A stretch of DNA of 64,000 nucleotides from Promethearchaeota archaeon. GTDB lineage: Archaea > Asgardarchaeota > Lokiarchaeia > Sigyniarchaeales > SOKP01. Both the position numbers and the translations under genes were made by a program. Within the stretch, counting starts at the first letter, position 1; every line of letters starts with the position of its first letter. Shown piece after piece: positions 7,168 to 63,939 of the stretch. A model generated the notes under the pieces. It saw nothing but the letters and a program-made list of their open reading frames with translations. It was not told where the DNA came from and searched no databases. Location of the stretch: assembly GCA_011364925.1 (NCBI GenBank), contig RDOA01000008.1, positions 36,629 to 100,628 of the forward strand, given 5' to 3'.

Positions 7168-7674
7168 ATGGAAACAGTAAAAATCATCGTTTCTGGAGAT
7201 GGCGGAGTAGGAAAAACGTCATTTTTGAATCGTTTAGTCAATAATAGTTTTGACGATTTTAGTGAATTAACAAAAGGCGTCGATTTTTACTCAAAAAGGA
7301 TATTTGTTAATGGAACCGAATTTAATTTCATAATGTGGGATTTTGCTGGCCAAGATCGATTTAAAACATTGTTAAACGACTTTGTTGAAGGTTCACTTGC
7401 TGCTTTTATTCTTTTTGACTTATCAAGAATTAATACCATAGAAAATGTATATGAGTGGATAATTAATTTAGAATCATTCGGACAAATTCCTATAATATTA
7501 ATAGGAACAAAGGTGGACTTGATAACCCCATATCAATCCCAAACAATTGATACTTACATCTCAGAAATTAAGAAAGAGTATGAGAATGTAATCTCTTATA
7601 TAAAAATATCATCGAAGACTGGGGAAAATATAAAAAATGCTTTTGAAATTTTAATAGGAAATTTGTTTCGATAA
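7168..7674 (+). CDS. small GTPase, Rab/Ras-like (minimal 168 aa)
   Basis: G1 GDGGVGKTS, G3 WDFAGQDRF, G4 GTKVDL, G5 SSKTG. No C-terminal Cys or prenylation motif. Confidence 0.85.
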   Translation: METVKIIVSGDGGVGKTSFLNRLVNNSFDDFSELTKGVDFYSKRIFVNGTEFNFIMWDFAGQDRFKTLLNDFVEGSLAAFILFDLSRINTIENVYEWIINLESFGQIPIILIGTKVDLITPYQSQTIDTYISEIKKEYENVISYIKISSKTGENIKNAFEILIGNLFR

Positions 7675-8725: not shown

Positions 8726-8924
8726 AAATATCAAATCAATGTTTTATTTATCAGATTTATTTAATGAAGAGTTCACTAAAAAACCTTATTGATAATACTA
8801 AGGGTATTTTCAAACGAATATTAATTATAGGTTATCAGAAAAATCAATAAAGATAAATAAAAAAAATTTGATTTATAAATTAATTTTAAATTTGCCTTTT
8901 AAACGAAATTAACGCCTAAGAATT

Positions 8925-10868: not shown

Positions 10869-11092
10869 GGTAAATTAATCGTAAGAATCTAACAATATAG
10901 GAGTATAGTAAATAGTAAATTATTTCAATTTTGTTTGTTATCACCAAACGCATGAGATGTATCTAGAGAATAAGATTTTAATTATCCAAAAGTATAATTA
11001 AATAAATTTTTATTAATAATTATAACATAAGAACTTTGTTTGAAGATTTATTTAGCAAATTAAAGATCGAATAAATTAACGGAAGATTTAAA

Positions 11093-12835
11093 ATGGCCGA
11101 AGAATACGATTTTTTGTTTAAATCGATTGTGGTAGGTGATGGCGGAGTTGGTAAAACAGCACTTACGCTCCGTTTCTCAAAAGGTTTTTTCACTGAAGAT
11201 TACAAAATGACAATCGGTGTTGATTTCCACGTAAAGACAATTTCAATTGATACATCTGAAGGGCCTATCAAGTGTAAGCTCCAACTCTGGGATACTGGGG
11301 GTCAAGAACGATTTAGCTCGATAAGACCAATGTACTATAGAGGATCGTTAGGAACTGTACTCGTTTTTGATCTCACAAATTCAGAAAGTTTTGGACATTT
11401 ACCACAATGGATACAAGAAGTCAGAGCTAACATAAAAGCTGATATTCCGGTGCTTCTTGTCGGAAATAAAAGCGATCTAGTTGACCAGAGAGCCGTCTCG
11501 GCGGAGGATGTAAGTAAATTTACAAGAGACTTTAACCTATATTATATGGAAACTTCGGCTAAAACGGGTGATGGAGTTGGAGATTGTTTTTACATTCTTG
11601 CATGCTTAATGATAGGACAGGGTGTTCCTGAACAATTAATTGCAAACTCAATCGTTTTTGCTCCAGGACAATTTGCTACACCAGCCGTTCAAATTTCTTC
11701 GCAACCAATAGTTACTAAGGAACCTCAAAGCAATTATATCGCACCATCTGTTCCAGGACATATCCAAAACTTGAAAGAGGAGCCTGAAATAGAGTTTGAG
11801 GCACCACCAGTTCCTGAACCGAAGTTATCAAAAGTTCGAGGTCCAACGTCTCCTTTCATTTCCGATTCAGAGATTGAATTTGAGGCTCCACCTGTTCCTG
11901 AACCACCACTAAAAGCGAAACCGCAACCTACTCCCGAAATCTCTCTACCTGAACCAACTGAAATAGAGTTTAAAACTCCTGATGAAATTATGATCAAAGA
12001 AGCTATAAAATCCGAACTTGATACATTAACAAGCGGTGACAATGTCTATAAACCTAAGACTGCACCTTTTACACCCAATGCTCCAGAACCTACAGCACCT
12101 CCTAAAGAATTTCAGAGTTCTTATTCAGAAGAACCAATCGAGAGATCTCCTATCCACACACCATTTCGCGTTATTAAAAGAGAAGAGTCTCCTAAACCTC
12201 AACCAGCTTCAATGACGTTTGAACCTAGCCCTTCACCTCAACCAGAATCAACTGAATCTTTAGAATCAACCTCTGATTCGTTGATCGACTATATGCCTCA
12301 AACAATTTTAACGAAAAAAGAGAAGAAAAAGCAAGCAAAGGAAAAGAAAAAACAAGAAAAAGAGAAAGCAAAAATAGAAAAAGAGAAGAAAATGCTCGAA
12401 GAAAGGGAGAAACAAGAAGAATTGATCAAAGAAATGAAAAAATCTAAAAAATCTAAAAAGGAAAAACCCATCGTAACCCAAACATCAGAACCAACGCAAG
12501 CACCTACTATAAGTCGACCAGAAACTGGTATGAATTCCTTATTCCAAACCCTCACCCAAAAATCTGAAGTCTCCCCACCAGATCAGAGTGTCCCATTTAT
12601 ACCTTTTTCGGGAACAAGCAAAACTAAAGAAGAAGGGACATCTAAATTAAGAATCATCCCAAATGTAGCAGACATTGATGCAAACTCTAACGGTTTCACA
12701 GCTTTTACTTCGTCTCAATCCAATCCAGATGAAGAACCAAAAGCTAAAACTAAAGATCTCTTAATTTGCGAGCAGTGTGGTTCAATCTTATCTGCTGATT
12801 ATGCATATTGTAACAAATGTGGTAATAAGTTATAG
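11093..12835 (+). CDS. Rab-like small GTPase with ~400-aa disordered/repeat extension and C-terminal zinc ribbon
   Basis: G domain: GDGGVGKTAL, YKMTIGVDF, WDTGGQERF, GNKSDL, ETSAKTG. It is followed by P/E-rich repeats (EIEFEAPPVPEP twice, then EIEFKTPDE), a K/E block, and the terminal CEQCGSILSADYAYCNKCGNKL. Confidence 0.85.
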   Translation: MAEEYDFLFKSIVVGDGGVGKTALTLRFSKGFFTEDYKMTIGVDFHVKTISIDTSEGPIKCKLQLWDTGGQERFSSIRPMYYRGSLGTVLVFDLTNSESFGHLPQWIQEVRANIKADIPVLLVGNKSDLVDQRAVSAEDVSKFTRDFNLYYMETSAKTGDGVGDCFYILACLMIGQGVPEQLIANSIVFAPGQFATPAVQISSQPIVTKEPQSNYIAPSVPGHIQNLKEEPEIEFEAPPVPEPKLSKVRGPTSPFISDSEIEFEAPPVPEPPLKAKPQPTPEISLPEPTEIEFKTPDEIMIKEAIKSELDTLTSGDNVYKPKTAPFTPNAPEPTAPPKEFQSSYSEEPIERSPIHTPFRVIKREESPKPQPASMTFEPSPSPQPESTESLESTSDSLIDYMPQTILTKKEKKKQAKEKKKQEKEKAKIEKEKKMLEEREKQEELIKEMKKSKKSKKEKPIVTQTSEPTQAPTISRPETGMNSLFQTLTQKSEVSPPDQSVPFIPFSGTSKTKEEGTSKLRIIPNVADIDANSNGFTAFTSSQSNPDEEPKAKTKDLLICEQCGSILSADYAYCNKCGNKL

Positions 12836-33173: not shown

Positions 33174-34190
33174 TTAAACCTCTTGTGTTTCTATATATTT
33201 TTTTATAATTTGAAGAGCGAGCATTCTAAAAGCGTCATTTATGTTCTCTCCTGTCTTTGCGGATGTTTCAAGATAAGTTAATTTTAATTTCTGCGATAAG
33301 GCTTCTCCTTCTTCCGTTGAAACAACTCGTTCTTCTTTTAAATCTATCTTATTTCCTACTAAAATAAGGACAATGTTAGGAGAAGCCTTCATAATCTCAC
33401 TATACCAATTTATGTCTATGTTTTCAAAACTTTCTCGATTAGTTACATCGTAGACTAAAATTCCCGCTTCAGCATTTGCTAAGTATGACATTCTAACCCG
33501 TTTAAATTGAGCTTGCCCCGCTAAGTCCCATATCACAAACCTAACAGTGCTTTCAAGCTCTTTGAAAGAACATTCCTTTTTCATGATCGATGTTCCAATC
33601 GTAGATTTATAATCTTTTGCAAAAACATTTTCTACATATCGATGTACCATACTCGTTTTTCCCACCGCTCCATCTCCACCGAGAATCAATTTAAAAGCGT
33701 ATTCTTTAGATTTGACTTTAACTTGTTGAACTCTATCTACTTTTCGTTGGATTTGAGAACCTCCAGAATTTATTACTAATTTTGGGATGACGGGACTCAC
33801 AGTTCTTCCGTCAAAGATTCGTGATATTTTTTCAGCTGCTAAATAGGCATAAGGGAAAACCTCATCTACTCCAGATAAAGAATCTAAAACCGTAACAAGA
33901 ACAGCTTCGGGTCCTGACTCGCAGAATATGAACCTATAATCTTCGGTATCAAAAGTACCCGTTCCAAATGAGCCGGAACTAAATTCTTCGGTAATCCTAG
34001 ATAAAACTGGCTCAACCAAAGCACTTACCCCTCCAATAATCTCTTCATTTAATGAATTCTCTGAAGAGCCAATTAAAGAGTCCATAATTAAACCATCCCG
34101 GTTTACGACGAGGACTGCGATTAAATCCTCACCTAAACTCTGTTTATACCATTGGAGTAAGGCTTTTAACTTTTTTGTGTCAATCGACAT
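33174..34190 (-). CDS. roadblock/LC7 domain - Rab/Ras-like GTPase fusion protein
   Basis: N-terminus: LIAVLVVNRDGLIMDSL..GGVSALVEPVL..AVLVTVLD (roadblock-like). C-terminus: GDGAVGKTS, DYKSTIG, WDLAGQAQF, GNKIDL, ETSAKTG. ATG 34190 is preferred over TTG 34199. Confidence 0.85.
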   Translation of the reverse strand: MSIDTKKLKALLQWYKQSLGEDLIAVLVVNRDGLIMDSLIGSSENSLNEEIIGGVSALVEPVLSRITEEFSSGSFGTGTFDTEDYRFIFCESGPEAVLVTVLDSLSGVDEVFPYAYLAAEKISRIFDGRTVSPVIPKLVINSGGSQIQRKVDRVQQVKVKSKEYAFKLILGGDGAVGKTSMVHRYVENVFAKDYKSTIGTSIMKKECSFKELESTVRFVIWDLAGQAQFKRVRMSYLANAEAGILVYDVTNRESFENIDINWYSEIMKASPNIVLILVGNKIDLKEERVVSTEEGEALSQKLKLTYLETSAKTGENINDAFRMLALQIIKKYIETQEV

Positions 34191-34459
34191 CTTTTTCAAG
34201 TTCTTTTTTCTAAGGTCATCATATTCTAATCATACCAATTATATTAATATTTAAAACTTATGAATAAAAATTTTGTTAAATATTTACAACCAAAGCAAGT
34301 GTTATTTTCATCTCTTAATTTCAGTATCTAACTTACTTCACTATTTTCTAGTCAAAAAACCAAAGCTATAAAAAAAAAAATTTTTAACGATTTTATTCTT
34401 TAATGCTATTAAGTTCGAGAAGATAATTAAATTATCATCTGCTTTTCCTTAGATTAGTT

Positions 34460-50746: not shown

Positions 50747-50902
50747 ATGACCCCATTAGGTGAGGAATTAAAAGAAGAAATCAAAAGAGGCGTTACGCTC
50801 CAAAAGGTTGACGAAGAAGACATGAGAAAACGCGAAGAAGAGAAAAAGCGACGAATGGAAGAATTAGAAAAAGTCAAAGAAGCCTTAGGAGCAAAAGATT
50901 AA
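50747..50902 (+). CDS. 51-aa K/E-rich microprotein with WH2-like N-terminal motif (absent from the ORF track because it is under 60 aa)
   Basis: My own translation: MTPLGEELKEEIKRGVTLQKVDEEDMRKREEEKKRRMEELEKVKEALGAKD. GAGGT Shine-Dalgarno 3 nt before the ATG, an in-frame stop 3 codons upstream, and oligo-T tracts just downstream. The competing minus-strand ORF (50635-50877) is Ser/Phe-rich antisense junk. Confidence 0.45.
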   Translation: MTPLGEELKEEIKRGVTLQKVDEEDMRKREEEKKRRMEELEKVKEALGAKD

Positions 50903-53191: not shown

Positions 53192-53286
53192 TTGGTAAGT
53201 AAAAAGACTAAATATTATAATTATGAATTTACATATGAATTATATCTTATATCATTTTTAATTAGAATTAAGTTGGATTGATTAAA

Positions 53287-53910
53287 ATGAGCCCAATTAT
53301 TACACATGAAGACGAACTTGAATTAGCCGACATGGAAAAAGAATTAGCAAATCAAATAAAAAAATTAGCCAAAGCCCAGAGCGCTTTAATCGATTCTCAA
53401 AAAAAATACGCCGATAATTTGAGAAAAGCAAATTTAGCTAGAGATATGTTAAATAGGTCTTTTCGAGATGTACTGAAACAAATGCAAACACTGGTAAGAG
53501 AGAGAAAGTCTAATATCAAAGATGAAGAAGTCAATTACTTTCAAGACATTATCCATAAAAATGACGAATACATTACTGTTAATAATAAATATATCGACGC
53601 AATAAAAGATCTTGCAACCAAAAAGGATTACTTGGTGGAAAAAAAATACGAGTTTGCTGACGCTTTAAGCGAAGTGGCTAGTACGCGAGGTGTAGTTATT
53701 AAAAAAGCGTTGTCTGTAGAAAAAAAGAAGAATGATTTAATTGAGGGAGAAAAAATGAAAATTTTAGAATCTGAATTGAACGATCTTCAAAGAGAGTTTG
53801 ATCGCGCACGAGATGTGCTGCTTAAAAAGATTAGTCAATTTCTTCAGGTCAAAGACGAAGTAGATGAACTCTGGGTCAATTTAAAAAAATCAGTTGATAA
53901 ATCTAGCTAA
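53287..53910 (+). CDS. all-helical coiled-coil protein (~208 aa), unknown function
   Basis: Heptad-rich K/E/D sequence throughout. ATG 53287 lies 3 codons inside the TTG-started track ORF. Confidence 0.6.
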   Translation: MSPIITHEDELELADMEKELANQIKKLAKAQSALIDSQKKYADNLRKANLARDMLNRSFRDVLKQMQTLVRERKSNIKDEEVNYFQDIIHKNDEYITVNNKYIDAIKDLATKKDYLVEKKYEFADALSEVASTRGVVIKKALSVEKKKNDLIEGEKMKILESELNDLQREFDRARDVLLKKISQFLQVKDEVDELWVNLKKSVDKSS

Positions 53911-54049
53911 CAGTAGTTTTACTTTTTTTTAACTTTTATTTTTTGATTAAAATGTTTTGTATGAGCTTAAATTTATTAAACAGTGCAAATATATAATATT
54001 TAGAAAATTTACTAGGATATATCGTCAAAATTAAAATGGAGAAAGTAAA

Positions 54050-54493
54050 ATGGCAGAAGAATTCGCAAATTTCATGCAAGAAACAAAAAAAGCTCCACTT
54101 GAAGAAAAATTAAACGCTTTTGGAGATATCGTTGAAAGAATGATGTCTGTTATTCTGAGGATTCCAGATTTAGTAGATCAGTCTCTAGCAAGTGTTGGAC
54201 AAAGAATTTCAACTTTAGAGTCACGATTAACCACAATTAATAGTGAAGTGTCAGCTCTTAGAACAAGAGGTTCTGGAACAGCTCCAGTTATCGCTGCACC
54301 TTCTGCTCCTACGAGTGCTCCTCCGCCCACATCGGGTCCACCTGGAGGTCCCCCCGGTGGCCCACCTGGAGGCCCACCACCTCCGCCAGGAGGTCCTGGT
54401 GCAGCACGCCCAGCGAGTCCTGTAAGCTTAAGAGGTGCTATAATGGGCGAGCTAAAACAATTATTTTCAAAAAGAGCTCAATCAGGACAATAA
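54050..54493 (+). CDS. coiled-coil / polyproline (GPPGG repeat) / basic C-terminal helix protein
   Basis: GGAG SD (tggagaaagtaaaATG). aa 1-72 are helical. aa 79-124: APVIAAPSAPTSAPPPTSGPPGGPPGGPPGGPPPPPGGPGAARPASP. The C-terminus is SLRGAIMGELKQLFSKRAQ. The Pro tract forms a GC-rich island in AT-rich DNA. Confidence 0.7.
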   Translation: MAEEFANFMQETKKAPLEEKLNAFGDIVERMMSVILRIPDLVDQSLASVGQRISTLESRLTTINSEVSALRTRGSGTAPVIAAPSAPTSAPPPTSGPPGGPPGGPPGGPPPPPGGPGAARPASPVSLRGAIMGELKQLFSKRAQSGQ

Positions 54494-54618: not shown

Positions 54619-56361
54619 TTGGTTAATTCGGTGCCGAACGCATTAAATCGTGAAGTTGAATTCTCTAAAGTTAGAATTGCTCACGATTTTCAGAAGCAAA
54701 TATTAGAAATCCCTTCTTTTATAAGAGTTCTCAATAATTATTATTATAATAAAACTGTTGTCCAATCAAAATTAAAACCTTTAGCATTAAGGAAATTCAA
54801 AGGAGGGAGGAAACCTTTAGAGACTAATAAAAATTGGCTTTATCTTCTTCCTACGCCTTTAAATGTCTTAAGTAGGGATTTACTTCATAAAAAAGATGCT
54901 TTTCAATTCCCAGATAGCATTTTGTTATTTGAAGCTTGGATGAACTTAGGATTGGGTGCGTTATACCCTAGATTAGCGCTACACTATAAATTCCCAGGAA
55001 TATTAAAGAATGAAAAAATAAGGCATGTTTTTCAATTCACATTTTCTACCTCAAGAGGATTTGGATTTCCAATCTATTTTGGACCACAATTTTATGAGTA
55101 TTTTTTGACGATTGGTAAAATTCTTGAACCCTTATTTAAGTGGAGTCATACCATTTGTCATAGAGCTAATCAGGCCATATTTCTGGTCGGTAAGAGATAT
55201 GGGATTAAAAGGCATCATCCTGGGGAATTTGAATCAGTTATTATTTCAGAATATGAAAATAATATGTTTAAAGGGATTGACACTCTCCTTCATGGATATT
55301 TCACTCAAGACCCAAAAAAACTGGGAACATACTCAAATTTAGACGAGATTCTTGATAATACGATGTTTTCTTACTCTATTGGTGATCACGCTATGAGTAT
55401 AGAAAGAAAAGTTAAGAATCAGACAATTACTATTCCTCTGATTACTCACGATTATATTGTTAACAAGTATAGTGTCAATTTTTATGAGTATCTAAAAGGT
55501 TTAATTTCCATCAAGAATCTTCTTATTAAAAAGATTTTGCTCTATAAAACGCAGAGAAAAGCATACATTAACAAATTAAAAAGAATCGATAAAATTAAAT
55601 TTAGATTAAGCCAATCTAAAAAAAAATCCATTCCCAATTTAAGATTGTTTAAACGATTTTCTAAAATTCAAGAATCTTCGCTTCACATTAAGCTTATGGA
55701 ACAATTATTGGAAATATTATGGACTTCACCGTTGTACACTCACGCAATTCACCACAGTATAAATGAAGAAATCACTTCTCAAAAATCTACAGACAACGAA
55801 ACCCTTACCAATTTTGAAAAAGATTCAATGGATTCAATATTTTTATTATATATAAAATTTTTCGAACAAAATAACGATTTTACATTTAAGGAAGTTGAAG
55901 TTTTTGACGAATTAAGGAAGGCTAGGGATCTAATAGGAACTATGTGGTTATCCTTTAAAGAAAAGCATTTTAAATTCGGTATTAAAAAAATAAATGAACT
56001 TTCACTTTTATCCATTACCAGGCAAGATTATAATAAATTTGTAAACGATATGATAAATAACCTCATACCTATATTTTCAATTTACGAAATCTTTAATAGA
56101 TCGCTTTCAGAATCCGTTTATCCAGAATCTATCCCTCAAACCAAACGAATAGGAGCTTATATCGCAAGTTTTTTAACATCAAGGTTCAATCCTTTTGGTG
56201 TAAATTTAATGAACCTCTTCAACAGGCTTGCCTTTTATAATTGGAGCTACTTCATTATAAAAAAGAAGCTTAATCGAACCAACTTTTTCAAATCAATTTT
56301 TAAGCTCCCTATATGGAAGTATATCCCTCCCAACATTGAAAAGAAAATTCTATCTTGTTAA
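54619..56361 (+). CDS. hypothetical protein (580 aa), orphan
   Basis: Long clean ORF with a TTG start and an aromatic-rich N half. No motif recognised. Confidence 0.55.
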   Translation: MVNSVPNALNREVEFSKVRIAHDFQKQILEIPSFIRVLNNYYYNKTVVQSKLKPLALRKFKGGRKPLETNKNWLYLLPTPLNVLSRDLLHKKDAFQFPDSILLFEAWMNLGLGALYPRLALHYKFPGILKNEKIRHVFQFTFSTSRGFGFPIYFGPQFYEYFLTIGKILEPLFKWSHTICHRANQAIFLVGKRYGIKRHHPGEFESVIISEYENNMFKGIDTLLHGYFTQDPKKLGTYSNLDEILDNTMFSYSIGDHAMSIERKVKNQTITIPLITHDYIVNKYSVNFYEYLKGLISIKNLLIKKILLYKTQRKAYINKLKRIDKIKFRLSQSKKKSIPNLRLFKRFSKIQESSLHIKLMEQLLEILWTSPLYTHAIHHSINEEITSQKSTDNETLTNFEKDSMDSIFLLYIKFFEQNNDFTFKEVEVFDELRKARDLIGTMWLSFKEKHFKFGIKKINELSLLSITRQDYNKFVNDMINNLIPIFSIYEIFNRSLSESVYPESIPQTKRIGAYIASFLTSRFNPFGVNLMNLFNRLAFYNWSYFIIKKKLNRTNFFKSIFKLPIWKYIPPNIEKKILSC

Positions 56362-56973: not shown

Positions 56974-57162
56974 CGAAATTCATACTCTAGTCTTTTTTAT
57001 TTTATTTGTAAATAATTCAATCAACCAAAACTAAAAAATTTTCGCTTTTCTGAAAGTAGAACAGAGGAAACCAAAAGATTTTTTAGGAATGCTTAATTTA
57101 TACACTTACTCTTTTTAGCTGAACTAGAAAATTGTATTTTTAATTGTAAGTTGATTTTAGGT

Positions 57163-58263
57163 ATGGAACATACGAATATATCAATCGAAAACGATAAAAA
57201 CTTAATAGAGAAGGTTCTTGATGATATAGATATGAGGTACATTGTTTTATTTCTCTATGTCATAAGAAATGACTTATTTAAAGATCTGGTTGATTCAGAA
57301 CTGATTGAATCATATGAGAAAGTCTTAATTCTAGACGAAATTTTTAAAAACAATATTTTAAACTTCTGGAATGATGAATTTATTGATGTAGCTATTGATT
57401 TAGGTTTATTCAAAAACATACGAAGTATGAGAGAATTTCAGCAAAAAGAAGGAGACTTTATAATTCGCCTGGGTGAAGAAACTATAACAATTGAAAACAA
57501 CACTATTTCAGTCCCAGATCATACATTATTCTTAATAATAAATAAGAAGTTCAAGTTCTTAACAAGAAGGAATTTTAACTCAGCTTTGATAAAATTGAAA
57601 GGAGTGCGGTGTGAGATAAATAATGTTATCCATCCGTTTATCTCTGAAATAGGAGAACATGATTATACAATTCCAAATGATATTTATTACATTTTAGACC
57701 AATATGGTAATGTTTATCAAGCGATTAAAATAGAAATTACAATCGAAGGTATGTATCAAAGGTATTTGGAAATCCAAGAAAAAATTGACAAATTTATTGA
57801 AATCTTCGAGCCAAAATTAACGACTAAACCTTTTTTAAAGAAAATACATGAAGCCATAAAAGGAAAAAGAGACATTATCACGGCCTTAAAGGATGATAAG
57901 CTAGAATTGTCCGAGAAATTTGACTGTAGTAAAATTGATATAGAAAATCCAATTTTTAAAGACTGGAATTCCAAATTAATGCAATTGCTGAATTATTCAT
58001 TTCAAATGAAGGAAATAGAAAATCAAATACTAGATATTAAGAAATATTATTCCGGAAAGGGTAAAAAGTATAACTACCTTGAATTTATTGAGAAAATATC
58101 TTTTAATGAAAATAACATTGTAAGCAATATTCAAGATGCTTTGATTAAACTTAGAGAAGAGTTAAAAGATATCAACAATCAAATTGAAATCTTAACAAAG
58201 AAAAAACTAAAACTAATCAATTTGGATTATGAAAGATATTTAATAATGAGTAGTGATGAATAA
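57163..58263 (+). CDS. orphan protein P1 of AAA+-anchored cluster (366 aa; C-terminal coiled coil)
   Basis: First gene after a 189-bp divergent gap shared with elf1. ATG 57163 (the track uses TTG 57151). No motif recognised. Confidence 0.6.
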   Translation: MEHTNISIENDKNLIEKVLDDIDMRYIVLFLYVIRNDLFKDLVDSELIESYEKVLILDEIFKNNILNFWNDEFIDVAIDLGLFKNIRSMREFQQKEGDFIIRLGEETITIENNTISVPDHTLFLIINKKFKFLTRRNFNSALIKLKGVRCEINNVIHPFISEIGEHDYTIPNDIYYILDQYGNVYQAIKIEITIEGMYQRYLEIQEKIDKFIEIFEPKLTTKPFLKKIHEAIKGKRDIITALKDDKLELSEKFDCSKIDIENPIFKDWNSKLMQLLNYSFQMKEIENQILDIKKYYSGKGKKYNYLEFIEKISFNENNIVSNIQDALIKLREELKDINNQIEILTKKKLKLINLDYERYLIMSSDE

Positions 58264-58265
58264 TT

Positions 58266-59222
58266 TTGAAATGTTCTGCGTGTAATATCGAAATGGAATC
58301 ACTTGTTCCGGGAATATTCCAATGTCCACGTTGCAAAAAAATACAAAAACAAAAAGATGATAAAAAAGAGAAAGAAGCAGAAACACATATAGAGCAGGGG
58401 GAATTTCTGGATGGAGACTATTTCCATAAGAATGCTAGTCTTAATAAACAGTATGAAATTTGCGAAAAAGGAGTAATAATTGACAAAACAGAAACCCGCT
58501 TATTTGCTGCATTGATATGTCATAGCGCTTATTTAAAAGATGAAAAATATATAAGACTCTCATGGTGGAAAACATATCAACATGCGGGTATGTTTAAAAT
58601 ATACGACAAAGATGTATTGAATAATGTTATTACATCATTAGAAAAAATTAATGATAGTTTCGATGATGTTTGGAAATGGATTGGAAAATATGGTAAACAA
58701 GAACCTAAAACAGAAGAAATATTAGAAAAAGAAAAGTATTTAGAGTTACTCAGATCTCGGATAATTGAAAATCGTACCTGTCCAAAATGTCAAAAAAAAA
58801 TGAATAAAGAAAAATCTCACTACGAATGCCAACATTGTGGTGAGATTGTTATCCTTGAAGGCTACAACCAACCTATCTTTAACATACCTTCTAAAGAACT
58901 TGATTTATCCTTCCAAGCTAACTTTCCAATTAATTACTATATGCCTGTAAGTGGTATTACTGTAAAATGGCTTATGGGGGAATGGAAAGCAATAGTAATA
59001 ATTCATTCTAAAGATAATCCAAATAAAAAATGGCTCCGATTTTACTGGTGGATGAGAGATTTGAGTAATATTTTAAAATTTGGGCAAAGAGAGATAGGAG
59101 AGGGCACACAAATGGGCTGGAAAGCACAAAAAGGTATAGCTTCACCAAATATGTACGATAAAAAATTAGTAATCCCTTTAATTAAGGCGTTAAAGAAAAT
59201 CCAAGCAGATTTAGATTGGTAG
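58266..59222 (+). CDS. orphan protein P2: tandem duplication of [zinc ribbon + ~120-aa WW-containing domain]
   Basis: TTG start 2 nt after the P1 stop. Ribbons CSAC..CPRC and CPKC..CQHC. Each is followed by a unit with K(Y/W)(I/L)R(L/F)xWW ... YDK..V/L...L.KI. Confidence 0.65.
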   Translation: MKCSACNIEMESLVPGIFQCPRCKKIQKQKDDKKEKEAETHIEQGEFLDGDYFHKNASLNKQYEICEKGVIIDKTETRLFAALICHSAYLKDEKYIRLSWWKTYQHAGMFKIYDKDVLNNVITSLEKINDSFDDVWKWIGKYGKQEPKTEEILEKEKYLELLRSRIIENRTCPKCQKKMNKEKSHYECQHCGEIVILEGYNQPIFNIPSKELDLSFQANFPINYYMPVSGITVKWLMGEWKAIVIIHSKDNPNKKWLRFYWWMRDLSNILKFGQREIGEGTQMGWKAQKGIASPNMYDKKLVIPLIKALKKIQADLDW

Positions 59223-59256
59223 ATAATAACAATTTTTATAATAAATCGTGAAATTG

Positions 59257-60402
59257 ATGGAAAATTTTAAAGATTCTACATGGAAAGAATTACTTCAAGA
59301 CTTTCAAAAAGGTATAGATAGAGCGATTGAAGAACTGGAAAATAGAGATGTAGAAAACATCCCTGGGGCAAAAGAAGCTCTTATCCAAAGATTAAAGAAT
59401 ATGAGGCTTCATTTTCCTAAGAACAATGGTGAGATCTTTCTAAAGTCAATTAATGATAAAATTCAAAACGCCTTCTTTCCAAACACGAAAGATTTTACTG
59501 AAGCTTTTGAAAAAATAATCAAATCAAGAACACATGAACAAGATTTCATTATAAATGAGTTATTAAATGGTTTTGTAACATCAAAAGCTAAAGCCATAGC
59601 TTCAGGAACTCAGGGACCTATAATAGATAGAATGGTAGAGGCTTTTAGTAGAAGAAACGACTTCCATATTGTAGATTATCAATTTTTTGCAATGTTTGGA
59701 GATCCTAATAAGCCTCGTCATCGTGTTAAAAACCAACTTGAAGAACTTGCTAAAATGTTTGGTTTAGTCTCAAAAGAACTTATTGTTGAAAAAGATGTAA
59801 GAAGAAGTGAAGAAAAGGTATACACATTTTATACTTTTCCTGATGGGATAATTAAAATTCTTGAAGAAAAATATTTGATAATCGATGAAGAATTAGGTTA
59901 CGCTTATGTATCAGAAGCTTTTGATAGAAATGTATTTATTTGTATGTTTTTAGCTAATGTTGCAATCAATAGAGATAATATCAATAAGATTGGAGGATCT
60001 TACACTTTAAATGGTATTTCTGCAATTTTTGCTCTAATTCTATTATTGAGTTTTTTACCCAAATTGAGTATAGATGAGACTAGTCCGATCCTCAACGATC
60101 CGAATTATGATCCAGAAAGCATGAGTGTGATACCGAAATCTTGGATGATGAAACAAGTTCTAGATCCTCTCTTTGAGCCTCTAATCAAAATAATTGCTTA
60201 CAGGTTAGGAGGAGGTTTGTGGTTATCACATATAATCGATTCTGATATAAATAAGAGAATTCATAATCAAGTACGATTTTTAATTAAAGATGTTAACAAA
60301 TGGATTTTAGGACAATTAGTGAGAGTAGAAATCCCAATTTTCGTAGAGATTTCAAATATTTTCACAGAAATCGTTGTAGGGTATGAAGATGAACAATTAT
60401 AA
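59257..60402 (+). CDS. orphan protein P3 (381 aa)
   Basis: ATG 59257 (the track uses GTG 59248). Mostly helical, with one hydrophobic segment GISAIFALILLLSFL. No motif recognised. Confidence 0.6.
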   Translation: MENFKDSTWKELLQDFQKGIDRAIEELENRDVENIPGAKEALIQRLKNMRLHFPKNNGEIFLKSINDKIQNAFFPNTKDFTEAFEKIIKSRTHEQDFIINELLNGFVTSKAKAIASGTQGPIIDRMVEAFSRRNDFHIVDYQFFAMFGDPNKPRHRVKNQLEELAKMFGLVSKELIVEKDVRRSEEKVYTFYTFPDGIIKILEEKYLIIDEELGYAYVSEAFDRNVFICMFLANVAINRDNINKIGGSYTLNGISAIFALILLLSFLPKLSIDETSPILNDPNYDPESMSVIPKSWMMKQVLDPLFEPLIKIIAYRLGGGLWLSHIIDSDINKRIHNQVRFLIKDVNKWILGQLVRVEIPIFVEISNIFTEIVVGYEDEQL

Positions 60403-60422
60403 TTATACGAGTTGTAAAACTA

Positions 60423-61730
60423 ATGAGTTACAAAAAGAAATCCACGAGAATTGAGAAACCTGGTAGAAAAAGAGAAAAGTGGACGGATATTCTTCCTCGA
60501 TATCTTACATTTTTGACACACATGCGCCCGATTTTAAGAGAAACCAGGAGAATTATAATTGATTTAGATGCAGATCTATTATTAGACCCTGAAATCCTAG
60601 ATAAAATTAGAGAAGAAGAAGAAAAAAGAAACATCAGAAAAGTAAGAGCTTTATCCGAATTTTCTGCAATGTATAGATCAAATATCTACGAAATCATAAA
60701 AGATTTTTTAGTAAAATATAGGGATCGAATTCCAGTAATTGATATTAAAGATTACATTATAGAATTTTTGTTCGAATCCATAGATGCGTTAAATGTATTA
60801 CGACACATAACTAACCCTGATGAACAGAATTTAGAAAAAACTTACTTATATGCTCTAGTTAAATTTATCGAAGAAAAGCTGCTTCCTCGAGGTAGAAATA
60901 TAAACGTAATTTACAAAAAACTATTAGATGCTTCCCAAAACGTATATGAATGTCAAAGGCATATACTTCAACCACATACATACTATCGCGAAAAACTAGA
61001 GGATTCAGATTCATTTGAAATTCCAGGAATTTCCCCAAAAGTATATCAAATTATTAATAATATCACATCACTCCTTAATCTAGATCCTAATTTTGGAAAC
61101 TTTCCTGAAAGAGAGAACCATGAAATCCCAATGATTTTAAAGGCTGATATTTTTAACCCATATATAGATTCAATAGCAAATGCAGAAGAAAACGCAGTTG
61201 GTCAAATTTCTGAACGCATTGGACTTCGTATTATTGATGAGATTTTTCTCGCACCAAGAGAAAACTTAGTAGAAATCATGTTAGAAAATAATTTCGTACG
61301 TACCACTACACAATCTGATGGAACTATAAGATTATTACCCCAATTGAGCAATGAAACATTAATATTATACTATTTATCATTTGCTTCCCAAAGAAGAGGT
61401 TTCTTGACTAAAGAATTAATAAATTGGATATCAATGAACTTCGCTTTTTTAATGTATATGGGGATTTTAAAATGGAAATTATCTGATCAAAACATTTTCT
61501 ATCCAATTTTTAAAGATTTACAAACCAATGAGAAAATTCTTCCTTACTTAATGAAACTTATCTGTTTTCCTAACTACTTAGGCATAGATAAAATGAAGAT
61601 AAGGGATTCACCTCAGTATAGAAAAGAAATTTTCAACTTTATTGGTTCTCAAATAGATAATCTTAAAGATTTTATCAATGAAATAGCAATGTTTTGTGAA
61701 AAGTTTGATAAAGAAAGGAAAAATAACTAA
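60423..61730 (+). CDS. orphan protein P4 (435 aa, helical)
   Basis: ATG 20 nt after the P3 stop. Basic N-terminus, helical-repeat-like. No motif recognised. Confidence 0.6.
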   Translation: MSYKKKSTRIEKPGRKREKWTDILPRYLTFLTHMRPILRETRRIIIDLDADLLLDPEILDKIREEEEKRNIRKVRALSEFSAMYRSNIYEIIKDFLVKYRDRIPVIDIKDYIIEFLFESIDALNVLRHITNPDEQNLEKTYLYALVKFIEEKLLPRGRNINVIYKKLLDASQNVYECQRHILQPHTYYREKLEDSDSFEIPGISPKVYQIINNITSLLNLDPNFGNFPERENHEIPMILKADIFNPYIDSIANAEENAVGQISERIGLRIIDEIFLAPRENLVEIMLENNFVRTTTQSDGTIRLLPQLSNETLILYYLSFASQRRGFLTKELINWISMNFAFLMYMGILKWKLSDQNIFYPIFKDLQTNEKILPYLMKLICFPNYLGIDKMKIRDSPQYRKEIFNFIGSQIDNLKDFINEIAMFCEKFDKERKNN

Positions 61731-62856
61731 TTTACTATTAAATGAGTTGAGAAAAATTAATAGTTCGAAAGAAACAGCGAGAGAAAATATAACATTTACT
61801 GATGATGTTATAAAAAATAGGATAGGAAAATATGGTGCAGTCTATTTTCCTTCCGACATTCAAGAGTCTATTGAGGATATCTTAGGCAATGAAACAAAGA
61901 AAGAAATTTTACATGATTTTTTTAAAGCCTTGAAGAAATACCATGAATTTATTAAACAATTAAAAGGTTCGAAACTTAATCCTAGTTTAACTGTTCTCTT
62001 ATATGGGCCTCCTGGGACCGGAAAAACTTCCCTTACAAGAGGATTTGCAAAGGAATACAATATACCGATTTGTGTTGTAGAAACTGATAGACTTGTATCT
62101 CCCCTGCTTGGAGATACTATAAAACAAATTAGAAATGTTGTAGAATTAGCAGCTGAAATTGCAAAAGAGAGAGGAGCTTTTATTTTATTTTTTGATGAGA
62201 TTGATGCTATTGGATCTGAACGATCTAATATCCACGAAGTCGGAGAGATAAAACGAGCTGTAATCTCTTTTTTACAAGTTGTTGATCGAGTTAATTATGA
62301 AGGAGTGCCATTAGCTATTTTTGGAGCCACTAATCATCAAAATCAGTTAGATTCTGCCATTTGGAGGCGATTCACCTTCCATTTTAGCTTTGAATTTCCT
62401 GATTATCAATTAAGAAATCAAATCATTAAATCATTTCTTGATAAAGTTGGAAAAGCAAAAATTGGGGTTGATGATTCAATATATACTAGTTTGAGAGATG
62501 AATTTAAAAGAATTCAAGAGTTGATTAACGATTTAGAACGCAAATTAGGTCATACTGTCTCTGAATTCGAAGGGGATATCTTCTGGGACGAATTTCATAA
62601 AAAATATAAGGAGAAGGGTTTAATTGAACTATCTAAAGGGTATTCGGGTTCAGATATAGAGAGAGGTACGAGAGTAGCATTATTAAAAGCGATTAATACC
62701 GAACGCCTAACCTATGACCTTTTTTATAACTCATTAAAATTGGTTGGAGGTACGGCAATTCATGTAGAAAGACAAGATATTTTAAGTAATACGAAGCAAA
62801 AGATTTTTAGTACGAGTAGAGCAAAAGATGACCGAAAAAAACCACCAGAAATATAA
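61696..62856 (+). CDS. classical-clade AAA+ ATPase, Vps4/spastin/Msp1-like (P5)
   Basis: Walker [13 protein letters not shown], Walker B ILFFDEIDAIG, sensor-1/SRH FGATNHQNQLDSAIWRRF (RRF rather than PGRFD), lid GYSGSDIERG. Pore loop 1 is SPLLGD, with no aromatic residue. There is no ATG before Walker A, so the start is GTG 61696, TTG 61705 or TTG 61747. Confidence 0.85.
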   Translation: MKSLIKKGKITNLLLNELRKINSSKETARENITFTDDVIKNRIGKYGAVYFPSDIQESIEDILGNETKKEILHDFFKALKKYHEFIKQLKGSKLNPSLTVLLYGPPGTGKTSLTRGFAKEYNIPICVVETDRLVSPLLGDTIKQIRNVVELAAEIAKERGAFILFFDEIDAIGSERSNIHEVGEIKRAVISFLQVVDRVNYEGVPLAIFGATNHQNQLDSAIWRRFTFHFSFEFPDYQLRNQIIKSFLDKVGKAKIGVDDSIYTSLRDEFKRIQELINDLERKLGHTVSEFEGDIFWDEFHKKYKEKGLIELSKGYSGSDIERGTRVALLKAINTERLTYDLFYNSLKLVGGTAIHVERQDILSNTKQKIFSTSRAKDDRKKPPEI

Positions 62857-62904
62857 AAATCTTATTAAAAAAATAGATTAAAAGGTTTTATTCAAATAAA
62901 AATC

Positions 62905-63939
62905 ATGGAAAATCAATTATTTAACCTCAAGAAAATTAGAGAATTATTATCTCCAATTGAGCAACTTCAAAGTAACATTAACCAGTTAGAAAATTCAATT
63001 AATCAATTTAATACACAAAAGAATTATATTTCTACATCTACCAAAAATGAAACCTTTCTCACTCAAATTAACGATATATCAAATCTCATCGAAAATATCA
63101 ATGTAAACTTCAAAATTGTCTTAACTAATAACATAAACTCACTTCTTTATATTAAAAATAAACTGACGAATAAATACAAGAAAAATTTAAAAGATAATTT
63201 AAAAAAAGTCGATTTAAAAAGTATTCACACAAAATCTATTGGTCAATCTTTAATAGAGAAGAAAAGTATCAGTAAAATTAAAAATGAGATATCTTATACT
63301 CCCTCTGTAAGCACAAAACAATGGTTAGAATTAATTGATGCTTTAAATAGAAACATACTTTTTGCAAATTCTGCAAAAAAACTTCAAGATAATTATCTAA
63401 AAAATATAAAAAATAAATTAACCAATGAATTAGAAAAAATTCCAAATAAAACCCCTCCTTCAATTATTGAAGAATTTAAAGCCCAATTCAATAAAAATCA
63501 CGATTTGACTTATGAAGATTTTCTCAAAATATTTGATGGAAAATTTACAGAAAAGGAATTGCAAATTAAAGAAGAACTAGTATCTAAAAGAAAACAGAAA
63601 CAAGAAATCGAAGAATTAAAAAAAAAGCAAGAAGAACAAACAGAGACTTATGAAAGTTATTTGAAGTTATCAGAAGAAGAATTTGAAAGAAAATTGCGTA
63701 AAAGAAAAAGAGAAAAATTAACAGATGTTAAAGAACCAGGAAAACAAAGAAAGCTTGAACTCTCTGATGAAGTCACAGAAAAAATTCAAAAATTCAAAAT
63801 GAAATTTGATAAGGATTCGAACGATAACTTTTTAACAAAAGAGGAAAATGGAATAGATCCTATCAAGATTATCAGAGAAAGAAAAAGGAAAAATAAGAAA
63901 GAGTATCAAAAATATAAAAATCATTTTGAATCTGACTAA
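62905..63939 (+). CDS. orphan coiled-coil protein P6 (344 aa, N/K-rich, highly charged C-terminus)
   Basis: ATG 48 nt after the P5 stop. Heptad-like N-terminus and a K/E/R-rich tail. Confidence 0.6.
   Translation: MENQLFNLKKIRELLSPIEQLQSNINQLENSINQFNTQKNYISTSTKNETFLTQINDISNLIENINVNFKIVLTNNINSLLYIKNKLTNKYKKNLKDNLKKVDLKSIHTKSIGQSLIEKKSISKIKNEISYTPSVSTKQWLELIDALNRNILFANSAKKLQDNYLKNIKNKLTNELEKIPNKTPPSIIEEFKAQFNKNHDLTYEDFLKIFDGKFTEKELQIKEELVSKRKQKQEIEELKKKQEEQTETYESYLKLSEEEFERKLRKRKREKLTDVKEPGKQRKLELSDEVTEKIQKFKMKFDKDSNDNFLTKEENGIDPIKIIRERKRKNKKEYQKYKNHFESD

Follow-up and report, generated by a model that had tools for sequence, protein, structure and literature searches.

A small Asgard archaeal protein homologous to the C-terminal tails of Arf/RagA-like GTPases and linked to a gene for a predicted BAR-like protein

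The gene and its predicted protein

The window, by which we mean the whole 64-kb stretch of DNA that was analysed, encodes on its forward strand a protein of 147 amino acids, the translation of which is identical to that given in an initial annotation made from the sequence alone. The open reading frame starts at the first in-frame ATG, with GGAG 8 nt 5' of it, and no paralogue of the protein was found within the window. The features of the locus are as follows.

53287..53910, + strand: upstream gene, probable partner, encoding a 207-aa three-helix bundle with a BAR-like fold (AlphaFold2, AF2; Foldseek)
53911..54049, + strand: A/T-rich intergenic segment with oligo-T runs after the upstream stop, a TATA-like stretch and GGAG before the ATG (read by eye)
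54050..54493, + strand: stand-alone member of the cassette family, 147 aa, 15.0 kDa, pI 9.4 (ORF list, translation)
54053..54091, + strand: short N-terminal helix, aa 2-14 (MAEEFxxF...), kept in stand-alone members (AF2, conservation)
54098..54268, + strand: long helix, aa 17-73, with a conserved N-part, PLEEKLNAFGDIVEKIMSIVLRIPDLVD, followed by a predicted heptad coiled coil, aa 46-73 (AF2)
54269..54427, + strand: disordered Pro/Gly/Ala/Ser linker, aa 74-126, coinciding with the GC island (pLDDT <50)
54335..54400, + strand: GPPGG/PPPPP core, aa 96-117, GPPGGPPGGPPGGPPPPPGGPG, including 12-bp near-repeats (TRF, orthologue alignment)
54407..54475, + strand: C-terminal motif, aa 120-142, RPASPVS-LRGAIMGELKQLFSKR, the best-conserved element of the whole family (alignments, AF2 helix 127-145)

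Reading of the intergenic segment 53911..54049 by eye suggests that the 147-aa gene may have a promoter of its own. The GC-rich island in AT-rich DNA that had been noted earlier is borne out, with a GC content of 0.57-0.71 across 54250-54450 against 0.32 for the entire window. At codon positions 1, 2 and 3 the GC content is 0.81, 0.94 and 0.25 in the tract and 0.47, 0.39 and 0.18 in the remainder of the gene, and the island is therefore explained by the amino-acid composition of the tract. The near-repeats described in the initial annotation are present by TRF but are modest (12-bp period, 3.4 copies, 75% matches, 54338-54378). The protein carries GGPPPPPGG at aa 107-115 and has the sole run of at least four prolines among the 29,097 amino acids of six-frame open reading frames in the 64-kb window; GPPGGPPGGPPPPPGGPG is a candidate segment of the tract for binding to profilins of the same genome.

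An AF2 model built on a 37-sequence alignment places helices at aa 2-14 and 17-73 (pLDDT ~90-95; 89-95 for the long helix), in agreement with the helical N-terminal half (aa 1-72) claimed at the outset, and a further helix at aa 127-145 (pLDDT ~82), with the intervening aa 74-126 predicted to be disordered (pLDDT <50). The 46-residue tract of the initial annotation falls within this 53-residue linker, after which only 21 residues remain. The pTM of the model is 0.30 and there is no sign of confident packing. In the short N-terminal helix E4, F5 and F8 are invariant within the clade, F5 being found in 71% of the wide family, and the helix aligns with the 'KFSSFIKG' segment directly after the GTPase domain of P0336, a tail-bearing protein described below. 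Hydrophobic residues occupy a/d positions 46, 49, 53, 56, 60, 63, 67 and 70, as read from the sequence, and these heptads, together with generic coiled-coil matches, are all that points to the predicted coiled coil. The long helix (aa 17-73) is likely to be an oligomerisation hub.

The claim of a basic amphipathic C-terminal helix is moderately supported by a charge of +3 and by muH and <H> values of 0.30 each on the HeliQuest scale, but muH is no more than 0.03 when the Eisenberg scale is used. The hydrophobic stripe of the helix is narrow, consisting of L127, I131, L135, L138 and F139, and the invariant E134, with the conserved K136 and R128 at the stripe edges, has the look of a protein-protein interface or of a coiled-coil contact of the e/g type.

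Orthologues, the wider family and GTPase tails

The protein is real and conserved in Asgard archaea: orthologues occur with fixed synteny in at least 123 Asgard species genomes, and close homologues, 135-155 aa in length, number at least 200 and carry no annotation. An exhaustive profile search covering 1.84 billion representatives returned 180 representative clusters at E<=1e-3 and showed that the wider family, which is unannotated and undescribed, spans Loki-, Hel-, Thor- and Odin-labelled Asgard MAGs.

Tract length had been named as the point on which orthologues should be compared, and the tract passes this test, being found in 118 of 118 full-length orthologues at 32-65 aa (median 52; 39% Pro, 22% Gly). 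A G-flanked run of at least five prolines is present in 94 of these 118 (80%). Among 82 distant members, just 18 have a run of at least five prolines and in 39 the longest run is two or fewer; it is chiefly the window's own clade that has true runs of polyproline. The C-terminal helix is practically invariant across the 118 orthologues, and its motif in the wide family is R-x-x-I-x-x-E-L-K-x-L-F-x-K. In a wide alignment of 79 sequences, conservation is 100% for E134, 95% for L135, 94% for K136, 80% for R128, 77% for F139 and 75% for L138, and mean entropy is 1.83 bits in the C-motif versus 2.6-3.0 bits in all other regions. As the C-terminal helix is far more conserved than the variable N-terminal helix, this pattern suggests an external conserved partner rather than self-pairing.

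Along its entire length the protein is homologous to the last ~120-160 aa of Arf/RagA-like GTPases. Compared with such a tail it is 36% identical over 123 aa in BLASTP (E 5e-14), and hhalign assigns a probability of 97.3% (E 1.9e-11). Pfam confirms the GTPase domains of the tail-bearing proteins. A search for these GTPases gave 79 matches, mostly of ~410-430 aa, and nearly all full-length matches terminate in ...LxELKxL(F/L)xK(R/K). We define the cassette as a K-x-x-x-x-G-x-[IV]-[LV]-E helix and a coiled coil joined by a disordered linker to a terminal R-x-x-[ILV]-x-x-E-L-K-x-L-[FL]-x-K (ELK) helix, and the 147-aa protein has this composition by profile search, BLASTP, hhalign and motif conservation. 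Judged by these sequence comparisons, it is a free-standing form of the cassette that in paralogues forms the C-terminal extension of Arf/RagA-like GTPases.

These GTPases (~410-430 aa, 'ADP-ribosylation factor-like protein'), of which P0289, P0336 and P0397 are examples, have in common with the 147-aa protein the helix with the K-x-x-x-x-G-x-[IV]-[LV]-E segment, the coiled coil, the linker and the ...ELKxLFxKR helix. Unlike them, the 147-aa protein has no HhH-like and GTPase domains, begins with its own MAEEF start helix and has a linker far richer in proline and glycine; the linkers of the GTPase tails and of distant members are mostly not polyproline. In other proteins the N-part is also fused to a Ras-like GTPase, to Zn ribbons and to LRRs. 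The GTPase-fusion genes adjoin lipid/inositol genes (MIPS, Ins134_P3_kin, BacA and PAP2). The published Asgard Arf work considered here does not describe this C-terminal tail. The family is of interest as it is spread over several Asgard classes, carries a motif among the most conserved short ones found and serves as a portable tail of Arf-like GTPases.

Database searches with the cassette itself return coiled coils. When the protein, its pieces and 79 members of the family were compared with Pfam, the only matches were scattered ones below threshold, to coiled-coil families (DUF1664, NPV_P10, Baculo_PEP_C, CCDC53, HSBP1 and DUF7310), of which DUF7310 (PF23991) matched the coiled-coil segment only, at 16-18 bits (E 0.003-0.015), below its gathering threshold of 40 bits. 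In the PDB, profiles of the clade alignment, of the wide alignment and of the 26-column C-motif found nothing but generic coiled coils, mostly trimeric, and designed peptides. Almost all matches of the long helix are trimeric coiled coils, and for the motif profile the heptad of a designed coiled coil, 'AIQQELK', ranks first.

The neighbouring genes

The upstream 207-aa gene lies on the same strand, ~760 bp 5', in 84 of 86 loci, the two misses being contig ends. This ~760-bp linkage is kept even where insertions part the 207-aa gene from the radical-SAM gene, and the two genes are still linked in a rearranged, distant locus, L092. We consider the BAR-like gene to be probably functionally linked to the 147-aa gene, on the evidence of gene order, although the linkage could be due to inheritance alone because Lokiarchaeia synteny is conserved over >15 kb. 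The AF2 model of the 207-aa protein (pLDDT 91.8) has helices at 7-71, 79-149 and 154-206, and its best Foldseek matches are BAR domains, arfaptin first (E 3e-3). We took a BAR domain to be an elongated three-helix bundle that dimerises to a curved six-helix module and has significant structural similarity to known BAR domains; the assignment here is a weak one, with Foldseek E values of 3e-3 to 5e-2 (none <=1e-3) and TM scores of 0.44-0.57.

Stand-alone members are also found near an Arf-like GTPase in two Odin-labelled loci (L087 and L090) and near a Roadblock/LC7 protein in a Hel-labelled locus (L095), and weak Ras-like and MP1/LAMTOR3-like genes lie nearby in L092. Two of the GTPase/Roadblock-type neighbours were identified through sub-threshold Pfam matches, and because small GTPases make up ~7% of the window's genes such neighbours are only weakly above chance. 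The WH2-like microprotein that had been placed 3 kb upstream is present as a 51-aa open reading frame at 50747-50902, conserved in the same syntenic block. A conserved AAA ATPase, without a MIT domain in Pfam, is encoded 7 kb downstream.

Candidate functions

The explanation that we favour, tentatively, is that the protein is an oligomeric tether, with its ELK helix docking onto a conserved partner of a GTPase/BAR system and its proline tract acting as a spacer. Architecture, conservation pattern, GTPase-tail homology and gene linkage are directly established. The coiled coil, the sequence of which is closest to trimeric coiled coils, would form a multivalent hub, and the conserved N-part of this hub may be where cargo is bound, the likeliest candidates being the neighbouring BAR-like protein and a small GTPase. 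The Pro/Gly arms would serve as extended spacers, rich in PPII and reaching ~10 nm each, under selection for composition and minimum length, not for exact sequence. The ELK helix would be the attachment point, either by docking in a groove or by helix-helix pairing with a highly conserved external protein of a small-GTPase/BAR membrane-remodelling system. From the established features we infer how the protein oligomerises, the function of the tract as a spacer, which partners are bound and the cellular process, the last of these probably being membrane or cytoskeleton remodelling. Counted for the tether were a tract that is always present and variable in length, a linkage to the BAR-like gene that resists rearrangement and the trimeric-type coiled-coil matches; counted against it was that a muH of 0.30, an <H> of 0.30 and a charge of +3 fit a membrane-binding amphipathic helix equally well.

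In bacterial divisome tethers (the FtsZ C-terminal peptide, the membrane-targeting helices of FtsA and MinD, and the P/Q linker of ZipA) a folded or oligomeric core is followed by a variable disordered linker and a short conserved terminal attachment helix. The 147-aa protein follows the same design logic with unrelated sequences, and its core is a single coiled-coil helix.

A less probable reading, and a rather doubtful one, is that the basic amphipathic C-terminal helix is itself a membrane-targeting element and the Pro-rich tract a flexible tether, so that the hub and its binders are held at the membrane. The design would resemble that of FtsA and MinD tails and, in the GTPase fusions, the hypervariable region and lipid anchor of eukaryotic small GTPases. 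The criteria taken for an amphipathic helix of the MinD/FtsA/Arf type were a hydrophobic moment that is large enough, a net positive charge and proven binding to lipid. The HeliQuest values of the helix given above, which we take to be similar to those of MinD tails, are matched by family medians of 0.38 for muH and +3 for charge, and the helix stands at the extreme C-terminus behind a flexible linker, also after GTPase domains. The values of both the protein and the family fall within the Arf amphipathic-helix window of PMC11914678. The BAR-like fold of the neighbour and the lipid/inositol genes beside the GTPase fusions also favour an anchor. What counts against it is that E is invariant and L and K are near-invariant (100, 95 and 94% over 79 divergent sequences), which is atypical of lipid-binding helices, as these usually conserve character and not residues. 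Moreover, the stripe is narrow with one aromatic residue only, R128 and R142 lie inside the hydrophobic arc and the Eisenberg-scale moment is near zero.

Since the G-flanked PPPPP is strongly kept in the clade despite a 32%-GC genome, the tract may do more than act as a spacer. One possibility, which we regard as unlikely, is that the protein is an actin assembly factor, in which GPPGG/PPPPP brings in profilin-actin (or a module resembling SH3/WW), the C-terminal helix attaches to actin and the coiled coil oligomerises, giving a minimal VASP/WASP-type factor for elongation or nucleation promotion. Asgard archaea have actin, profilins and gelsolins, and neither their nucleation and elongation machinery nor a native polyproline ligand has been identified (PMC9433394). 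Polyproline-dependent nucleation machinery in these archaea is described as 'yet to be discovered' (PMC9433394), which makes the protein a reasonable native ligand to test. The use of polyproline by Asgard profilins is disputed, and published assays reported no binding of VASP polyproline by Loki profilin-1 or -2 (PMC8410842).

Several observations agree with a role in actin assembly. A G-flanked run of at least five prolines is kept in 80% of orthologues in an AT-rich genome, the extreme conservation of the C-terminal helix fits a very conserved partner, for example Lokiactin, the WH2-like microprotein is conserved in the same syntenic block, and the neighbouring protein is BAR-like. The order of oligomerising helix, Pro-rich segment and helix parallels parts of WAVE and VASP. 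The parts list of Ena/VASP and WASP/WAVE proteins matches (oligomerising helix, G-flanked GPPPPP-like polyproline, short basic helix), but the 147-aa protein lacks EVH1, WH2, FH2, a VCA acidic region and sequence similarity, and its coiled coil is N-terminal whereas that of VASP is C-terminal. Ena/VASP proteins are defined by EVH1 and EVH2 with G-/F-actin motifs and a C-terminal tetramerisation coiled coil, and formins by FH2 directly C-terminal to a polyproline FH1; no Pfam match to WH1/EVH1, VASP_tetra or FH2 was found in the protein, which we place in neither group. WH2 (PF02205) is an LLxxIxxG amphipathic helix followed by an extended LKK[TV] at fixed spacing. The likeness to WH2/GAB is a loose one, as had been said at the outset: the spacing is I-x-G-x-L-K and not I-x-x-G-x-x-L-K-K, the helix is continuous through LK in AF2, and Pfam gave no WH2 match in the C-terminal peptide even at E<=10. 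Neither an actin-binding motif nor a WH2 protein was among the PDB sequences matched by the C-motif profile, and no eukaryotic actin regulator was among the best 150 matches in the profile search of 1.84 billion representatives.

Of the subunits of WAVE and WASH, BRICK1/HSPC300 and CCDC53 share with the protein a small size and a trimer-type coiled coil. A weak BRICK1 match (E 0.75) and CCDC53 (PF10152) matches in 3 of 79 members (best E 3.7e-5) and in P0378 (E 4.9e-4 and 21 bits, with a cutoff of 24.6) could be read in favour of an actin role, but they are no commoner than those to DUF1664, baculovirus P10, PEP and other generic coiled-coil families, and the lead was dropped as not robust. 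The absence of polyproline from most distant members and most GTPase tails, in which the C-helix persists, and the failure of Loki profilins to bind VASP polyproline in vitro (PMC8410842) also weigh against recruitment. If a profilin ligand is taken to be a run of roughly five or more prolines, often between glycines, that binds measurably, the indirect evidence on profilin/actin recruitment is mixed and leans against it.

The context points first to Arf-like GTPases and to the BAR-like neighbour, which is compatible with actin regulation but no demonstration of it. A Lokiactin co-immunoprecipitation from L. ossiferum includes, in the part of the report considered here, a 38.1-kDa 'Arf', UYP48373.1, and a 24.7-kDa 'Bar1', UYP45610.1 (bioRxiv 10.1101/2025.11.30.690169). 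'Bar1' (24.73 kDa; 'Bar2' is 51 kDa) agrees with our BAR-like neighbour (24.15 kDa) in mass only, the tables giving Prokka IDs without sequences (bioRxiv 10.1101/2025.11.30.690169), and IDs flanking Bar1 were not found in the examined part of the co-immunoprecipitation table. It is still less likely that the whole cassette is an Asgard actin-assembly module, in which the ELK helix would bind Lokiactin, the Loki-clade GPPGG/PPPPP arm would add profilin-actin, and Arf-like fusion and arfaptin-like BAR pairing would give small-GTPase and curvature control. Were this true, the module would be a prokaryotic functional forerunner of WASP/WAVE/VASP logic, with the WH2-like microprotein as an additional component. 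Should actin prove not to be involved, identifying what the ELK helix binds would still give a function to many Asgard GTPase extensions. An ELK peptide, a native GPPGGPPPPPGG peptide and the BAR-like neighbour are three reagents with which the links of Asgard small GTPases to membranes or cytoskeleton could be probed.

A self-association switch appears very improbable. Here the C-terminal helix would pack into grooves of the N-terminal coiled coil, by folding back or by swapping between subunits, and form a trimer-of-hairpins-like bundle for autoinhibition or polymerisation, the sole demand on the tract being that it is long enough to span the helix. It agrees with the central coiled coils of HA2, spike HR1 and RSV F among the best PDB matches, with a minimum linker of 32 aa (~10 nm extended) that exceeds the ~8.5-nm helix and with the resemblance of the C-motif to coiled-coil heptads. 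However, entropies of 1.83 bits for the C-helix and 2.6-3.0 bits for the N-helix are unexpected for co-evolving partners, some variants keep the N-part with the C-helix replaced by Zn ribbons, and AF2 gives no confident packing (pTM 0.30).

Least credible of all is an ESCRT/Vps4 client with the proline-rich segment and C-helix as MIM2 and MIM1 motifs for a MIT domain, since, for all that I131-L135-L138 reproduces the hydrophobic spacing of MIM1 (consensus (D/E)xxLxxRLxxL(K/R), with L at 0, +4 and +7 and arginine at +3), that IST1 likewise has a proline-rich linker before its terminal helix and that the conserved AAA ATPase gene is found 7 kb further downstream, the +3 arginine is replaced by the invariant E134, the AAA protein lacks a MIT domain (Pfam) and the block holds neither a MIT-domain protein nor an ESCRT gene.

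Known motifs compared with the C-terminal helix (VASP FAB, WASP C-region, formin DAD, PIP box, the archaeal stalk aP1 tail and MIM1) were partly similar and none was backed by a search; with so many partial likenesses, short amphipathic helices are not assignable in this way. Among these, IMGELKQLFAKR presumably resembles the VASP FAB motif. Baculovirus P10 (PF05531), a viral fibrillar protein without an ELK helix, the likeness of which is confined to the coiled coil, has the same layout of coiled coil, proline-rich region and basic C-terminus, and its Pfam model was matched by 5 family members (best E 1.1e-5).

The gene and its proline-rich tract

The open reading frame of the 147-aa coiled-coil and proline-arm protein (hereafter the target; window 54050-54493, plus strand) is intact by ORF list and translation, and the protein sequence quoted in the initial annotation is its exact translation. 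The start codon is the earliest ATG in frame, with GGAG 8 nt before it, and by eye the gene follows the stop codon of the preceding gene and A/T-rich intergenic DNA with oligo-T runs. The GC-rich island that had been remarked on over the tract in otherwise AT-rich DNA is real, with a GC content of 0.57-0.71 over 54250-54450 and of 0.32 in the window overall. Within the tract, GC at codon positions 1, 2 and 3 is 0.81, 0.94 and 0.25, and at position 3 in the rest of the gene it is 0.18; since the first two positions are GC-rich and the third is AT-biased like the remaining gene, the island is an effect of amino acid composition. The near-repeats described there do occur at the DNA level (54338-54378), but they are modest (period 12 bp, 3.4 copies, 75% matches; TRF). 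The sole proline run of four or more among the 29,097 residues of the window's six-frame ORFs lies in this gene. Two small ORFs are also listed in the island:

54178-54330, minus strand: small ORF within the island
54243-54425, plus strand: small ORF within the island

Both are most simply by-products of a GC-rich sequence without stop codons. An out-of-frame ATG 14 nt 5' of the target start opens a short overlapping ORF (window 54036-54113, plus strand), and a 14-bp near-duplication, AAAGTAAAATGGCAG (2.1 copies; TRF), spans the start codon. The exact target sequence was not found in a collection of 15 billion proteins, thus the source assembly may lack a call for this gene or have a different one.

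AlphaFold2, using a 37-sequence alignment (pTM 0.30), predicts a short helix (residues 2-14) followed by a long helix (17-73; pLDDT 89-95), a disordered stretch (74-126; pLDDT below 50) and a C-terminal helix (127-145; pLDDT about 82). Residues 46-73 have regular a/d hydrophobic residues. Pfam gave generic coiled-coil matches only, all sub-threshold, and PDB profile searches with the target family returned almost exclusively trimeric coiled coils (autotransporter adhesin stalks, reovirus sigma-1, HA2, spike HR1 and Lpp), a weak hint, at the level of sequence profiles, that the coiled coil may be a trimer-type hub.

Conservation of the terminal helix and its occurrence in small GTPases

Close homologues of the target number at least 200 (135-155 aa), all labelled 'hypothetical', none with a Pfam domain and all from Asgard (Promethearchaeota) MAGs; among the species-representative genomes scanned, 123 carry the gene. 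Comparison of orthologues, as proposed in the initial annotation, found the tract neither lost nor randomised: it is kept in 118/118 full-length orthologues (32-65 aa, median 52; 39% Pro, 22% Gly), and its length alone drifts, by PPGG-like units. The longest proline run is at least five residues in 94 of the 118 and at least four in 106. Among them, variation is essentially absent from the first 45 residues and from the C-terminal segment RPA[SN]P[VQI]SLRGAIM[GS]ELKxLFx[KR]R.

When 1.84 billion representative proteins were searched exhaustively with the profile, 180 clusters matched at E<=1e-3. Distant members (100-190 aa), carrying names from Odinarchaeia, Thorarchaeota and Helarchaeota MAGs, retain the N-helix, coiled coil, linker and terminal helix, the last with the motif R-x-x-I-x-x-E-L-K-x-L-F-x-K (the ELK helix). 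Their linkers are proline-enriched (median 21% Pro, 82 members), with a proline run of at least five in 18/82 and a longest run of at most two in 39/82; the polyproline form is thus found mainly in the window's own clade. In a 79-sequence alignment E134 is invariant and L135 (95%), K136 (94%), R128 (80%), F139 (77%) and L138 (75%) are conserved, and mean entropy is 1.83 bits in the C-helix and 2.6-3.0 bits in all other regions. Given this lowest entropy and the variable form of the linker, the ELK helix is the constant end of the family, presumably the functional one. In eight homologues (P0266, P0272, P0293, P0296, P0261, P0279, P0275 and P0317) the N-helix and coiled coil are kept and the ELK helix is swapped for CxxC Zn ribbons or LRRs, and P0379 is the converse variant, with a different N-terminal region, a coiled coil, PPPPPPPP and the ELK helix, which together indicate that the parts are portable.

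The same cassette (N-helix/coiled coil, linker and ELK helix) forms the tail of GTPases. Specifically, by Pfam, the homologues P0289, P0329, P0336 and P0353 have three parts in order: an N-terminal region (with an HhH_5 match in P0329 only), an Arf/Gtr1-RagA-like GTPase (E 1e-19 to 1e-24) and the cassette. P0275 combines a Ras-like GTPase, the cassette N-part and a Zn ribbon, and in P0317 the N-part is fused to LRRs. The target matches the C-terminal 115 residues of P0289, with 36% identity across 123 aa (E 5e-14), and the clade profile aligns with residues 305-463 of P0336 (hhalign probability 97.3%). A query with the GTPase and tail of P0289 retrieved 79 proteins from Asgard MAGs, mostly about 410-430 aa and named 'ADP-ribosylation factor-like protein'; nearly all full-length GTPases among them end in ...(V/I)LxELKxL(F/L)xK(R/K), preceded by a usually non-polyproline linker. 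No description of this tail was found in the Asgard Arf literature examined (including PMC11914678), and the family is unannotated, not in Pfam and without a description in the literature searched. Judged by sequence, the target is a true member solely of this unnamed GTPase-tail cassette family, defined here. In other contigs, a GTPase-plus-cassette gene adjoins inositol-1-phosphate synthase, two Ins134_P3_kin-like genes and BacA (locus L098, 1-9000) or a PAP2 phosphatase (L100, 8242-8967), possibly a lipid or inositol theme.

Gene order and the BAR-like neighbour

Gene order is fixed across 86 related loci; this order, and individual features of the window, are as follows:

Order, first part (86 loci): CutA1, two unknown genes, radical SAM, GNAT, 50/51-aa microprotein, Pelota, radical SAM
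Order, second part (86 loci): 207-aa coiled-coil protein, target, 560-580-aa protein, Elf1 (opposite strand), four unknown genes, AAA ATPase
50747-50902, plus strand: WH2-like microprotein, 51 aa; ELKEEIKRGVTLQKVDEE fits the WH2 pattern LxxxIxxGxxLxKV
53287-53910, plus strand: 207-aa neighbour, a three-long-helix bundle, always adjacent to the target
54619-56361, plus strand: 580-aa protein between target and Elf1, without any Pfam match
57151-63939, plus strand: conserved block of 370-, 318- (Zn ribbons), 384- and 435-aa proteins without Pfam domains, then a 386-aa AAA ATPase and a 344-aa Lys-rich coiled-coil protein
7156-7671 (plus), 8913-9866 (plus), 11075-12832 (plus) and 33177-34229 (minus): the four small GTPases of the 64-kb window

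The 207-aa gene lies constantly about 760 bp upstream of the target, despite insertions parting it from the radical-SAM gene in L011, L057, L070 and L083, and in the rearranged, more distant locus L092 its homologue (32% identity, E 1e-25) is 2 kb from the target homologue. Its AlphaFold2 model is a confident bundle of three helices of 55-70 residues (pLDDT 91.8, pTM 0.78), which Foldseek places closest, among PDB structures, to BAR domains (arfaptin top, then SNX1/5, Pil1/Lsp1, F-BAR/I-BAR proteins and IRSp53), though all of these matches are weak (E 3e-3 to 5e-2, TM 0.44-0.57). The neighbour protein (window 53278-53910) shares 100% identity with EAX91_05010, from a Candidatus Lokiarchaeota MAG (P0123). 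The 560-580-aa gene is present in 60/86 loci and cleanly absent elsewhere, a presence/absence polymorphism, and the order of the 57151-63939 block is unchanged in distant Loki loci. L011 (DATKTW010000134.1), labelled 'Candidatus Nanopelagicaceae bacterium', has the full Asgard syntenic block and 83% identity to the target, and is probably a mis-binned or mislabelled MAG.

Distant stand-alone members have GTPase-related neighbours: in the Odin-labelled L087 and L090 an Arf-like GTPase of 170-178 aa, in the Hel-labelled L095 a V4R-Roadblock/LC7 protein, and in L092 weak Ras-like and MP1/LAMTOR3-like genes. However, with four small GTPases in the window (two multidomain, 586 and 351 aa, and one a 318-aa Gtr1/RagA-like protein), GTPase neighbours of any gene are unsurprising and only weakly above chance; it is the domain fusions that are solid evidence for the GTPase link.

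Candidate mechanism and alternatives

The analysis establishes the target's architecture, its pattern of conservation, its homology to GTPase tails and its linkage to the neighbouring gene. From these we infer oligomeric state, partners and cellular process as follows, in the reading that we consider most likely, though with somewhat less than even confidence in the mechanism as a whole. The long helix would oligomerise to give a multivalent hub, whose conserved N-part would bind cargo, the BAR-like neighbour or a small GTPase being the obvious candidates; the Pro/Gly arm would serve as an extended spacer, selected for composition and for a minimum length; and the ELK helix would dock onto a conserved external protein of a small-GTPase/BAR remodelling system. 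It would thereby work by the logic of the linker-plus-terminal-peptide tethers of FtsZ/FtsA/ZipA. The design principle is familiar; the family itself is undescribed in the literature searched. Its polyproline peptide, its near-invariant candidate docking peptide and the BAR-like candidate partner are native reagents for probing the links of Asgard small GTPases to membranes or Lokiactin.

The C-terminal helix might instead anchor the protein to membranes, which we consider rather unlikely. Its HeliQuest values (muH 0.30, <H> 0.30, charge +3; family median muH 0.38) are within the range of Arf amphipathic helices (PMC11914678), making a membrane-targeting role physically plausible. However, its moment is near zero on the Eisenberg scale, owing to R128 and R142 inside the hydrophobic arc. 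The individual residues E134, L135 and K136 stay constant from one Asgard class to another as the N-helix varies, a pattern that speaks for a protein interface.

More doubtful is recruitment of actin or profilin, as proposed in the initial annotation. The parts list of the target resembles that of VASP/WAVE, but the target does not qualify as a WH2, FH2 or EVH1/EVH2 protein. Its C-terminal helix is, as had been said, only loosely WH2-like: it lacks the WH2 spacing, and the C-terminal peptide has no Pfam WH2 match even at E<=10. A 26-column profile of the ELK motif found no actin-binding motif in the PDB, its best match being a designed coiled-coil heptad, AIQQELK, and there was no eukaryotic actin regulator among the best 150 matches of the representative search. 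Weak matches to BRICK1 (E 0.75) and to CCDC53 (3/79 family members, plus the homologue P0378) are no commoner than those to other coiled-coil families. The statement of the initial annotation that reports on Asgard profilins are split is confirmed by the literature: VASP polyproline is not bound by Loki and Odin profilins and is bound by Heimdall LC3 and a Thor profilin at 0.25-0.5 mM (PMC8410842). For Asgard archaea, a nucleation machinery that depends on polyproline is described as 'yet to be discovered' (PMC9433394). The microprotein 3 kb upstream is found by tblastn in 72/86 related loci, always between the GNAT and Pelota genes (typical sequence ELQEEIKKGVSLQKVDEEE), and has no Pfam WH2 match even at E<=10. 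In the portion of the L. ossiferum Lokiactin co-IP data considered here, a 38.1-kDa 'Arf' is significantly enriched and a 24.73-kDa 'Bar1' (UYP45610.1) is detected with non-significant enrichment; the neighbour, at 24.15 kDa, is a candidate match to 'Bar1' by mass.

A self-association switch, in which the C-helix folds back onto its own N-terminal helix, is improbable, as residues of the former are invariant across Asgard classes and the latter drifts. Least probable is an MIT/Vps4 ligand, since the invariant glutamate stands where MIM1 has arginine.
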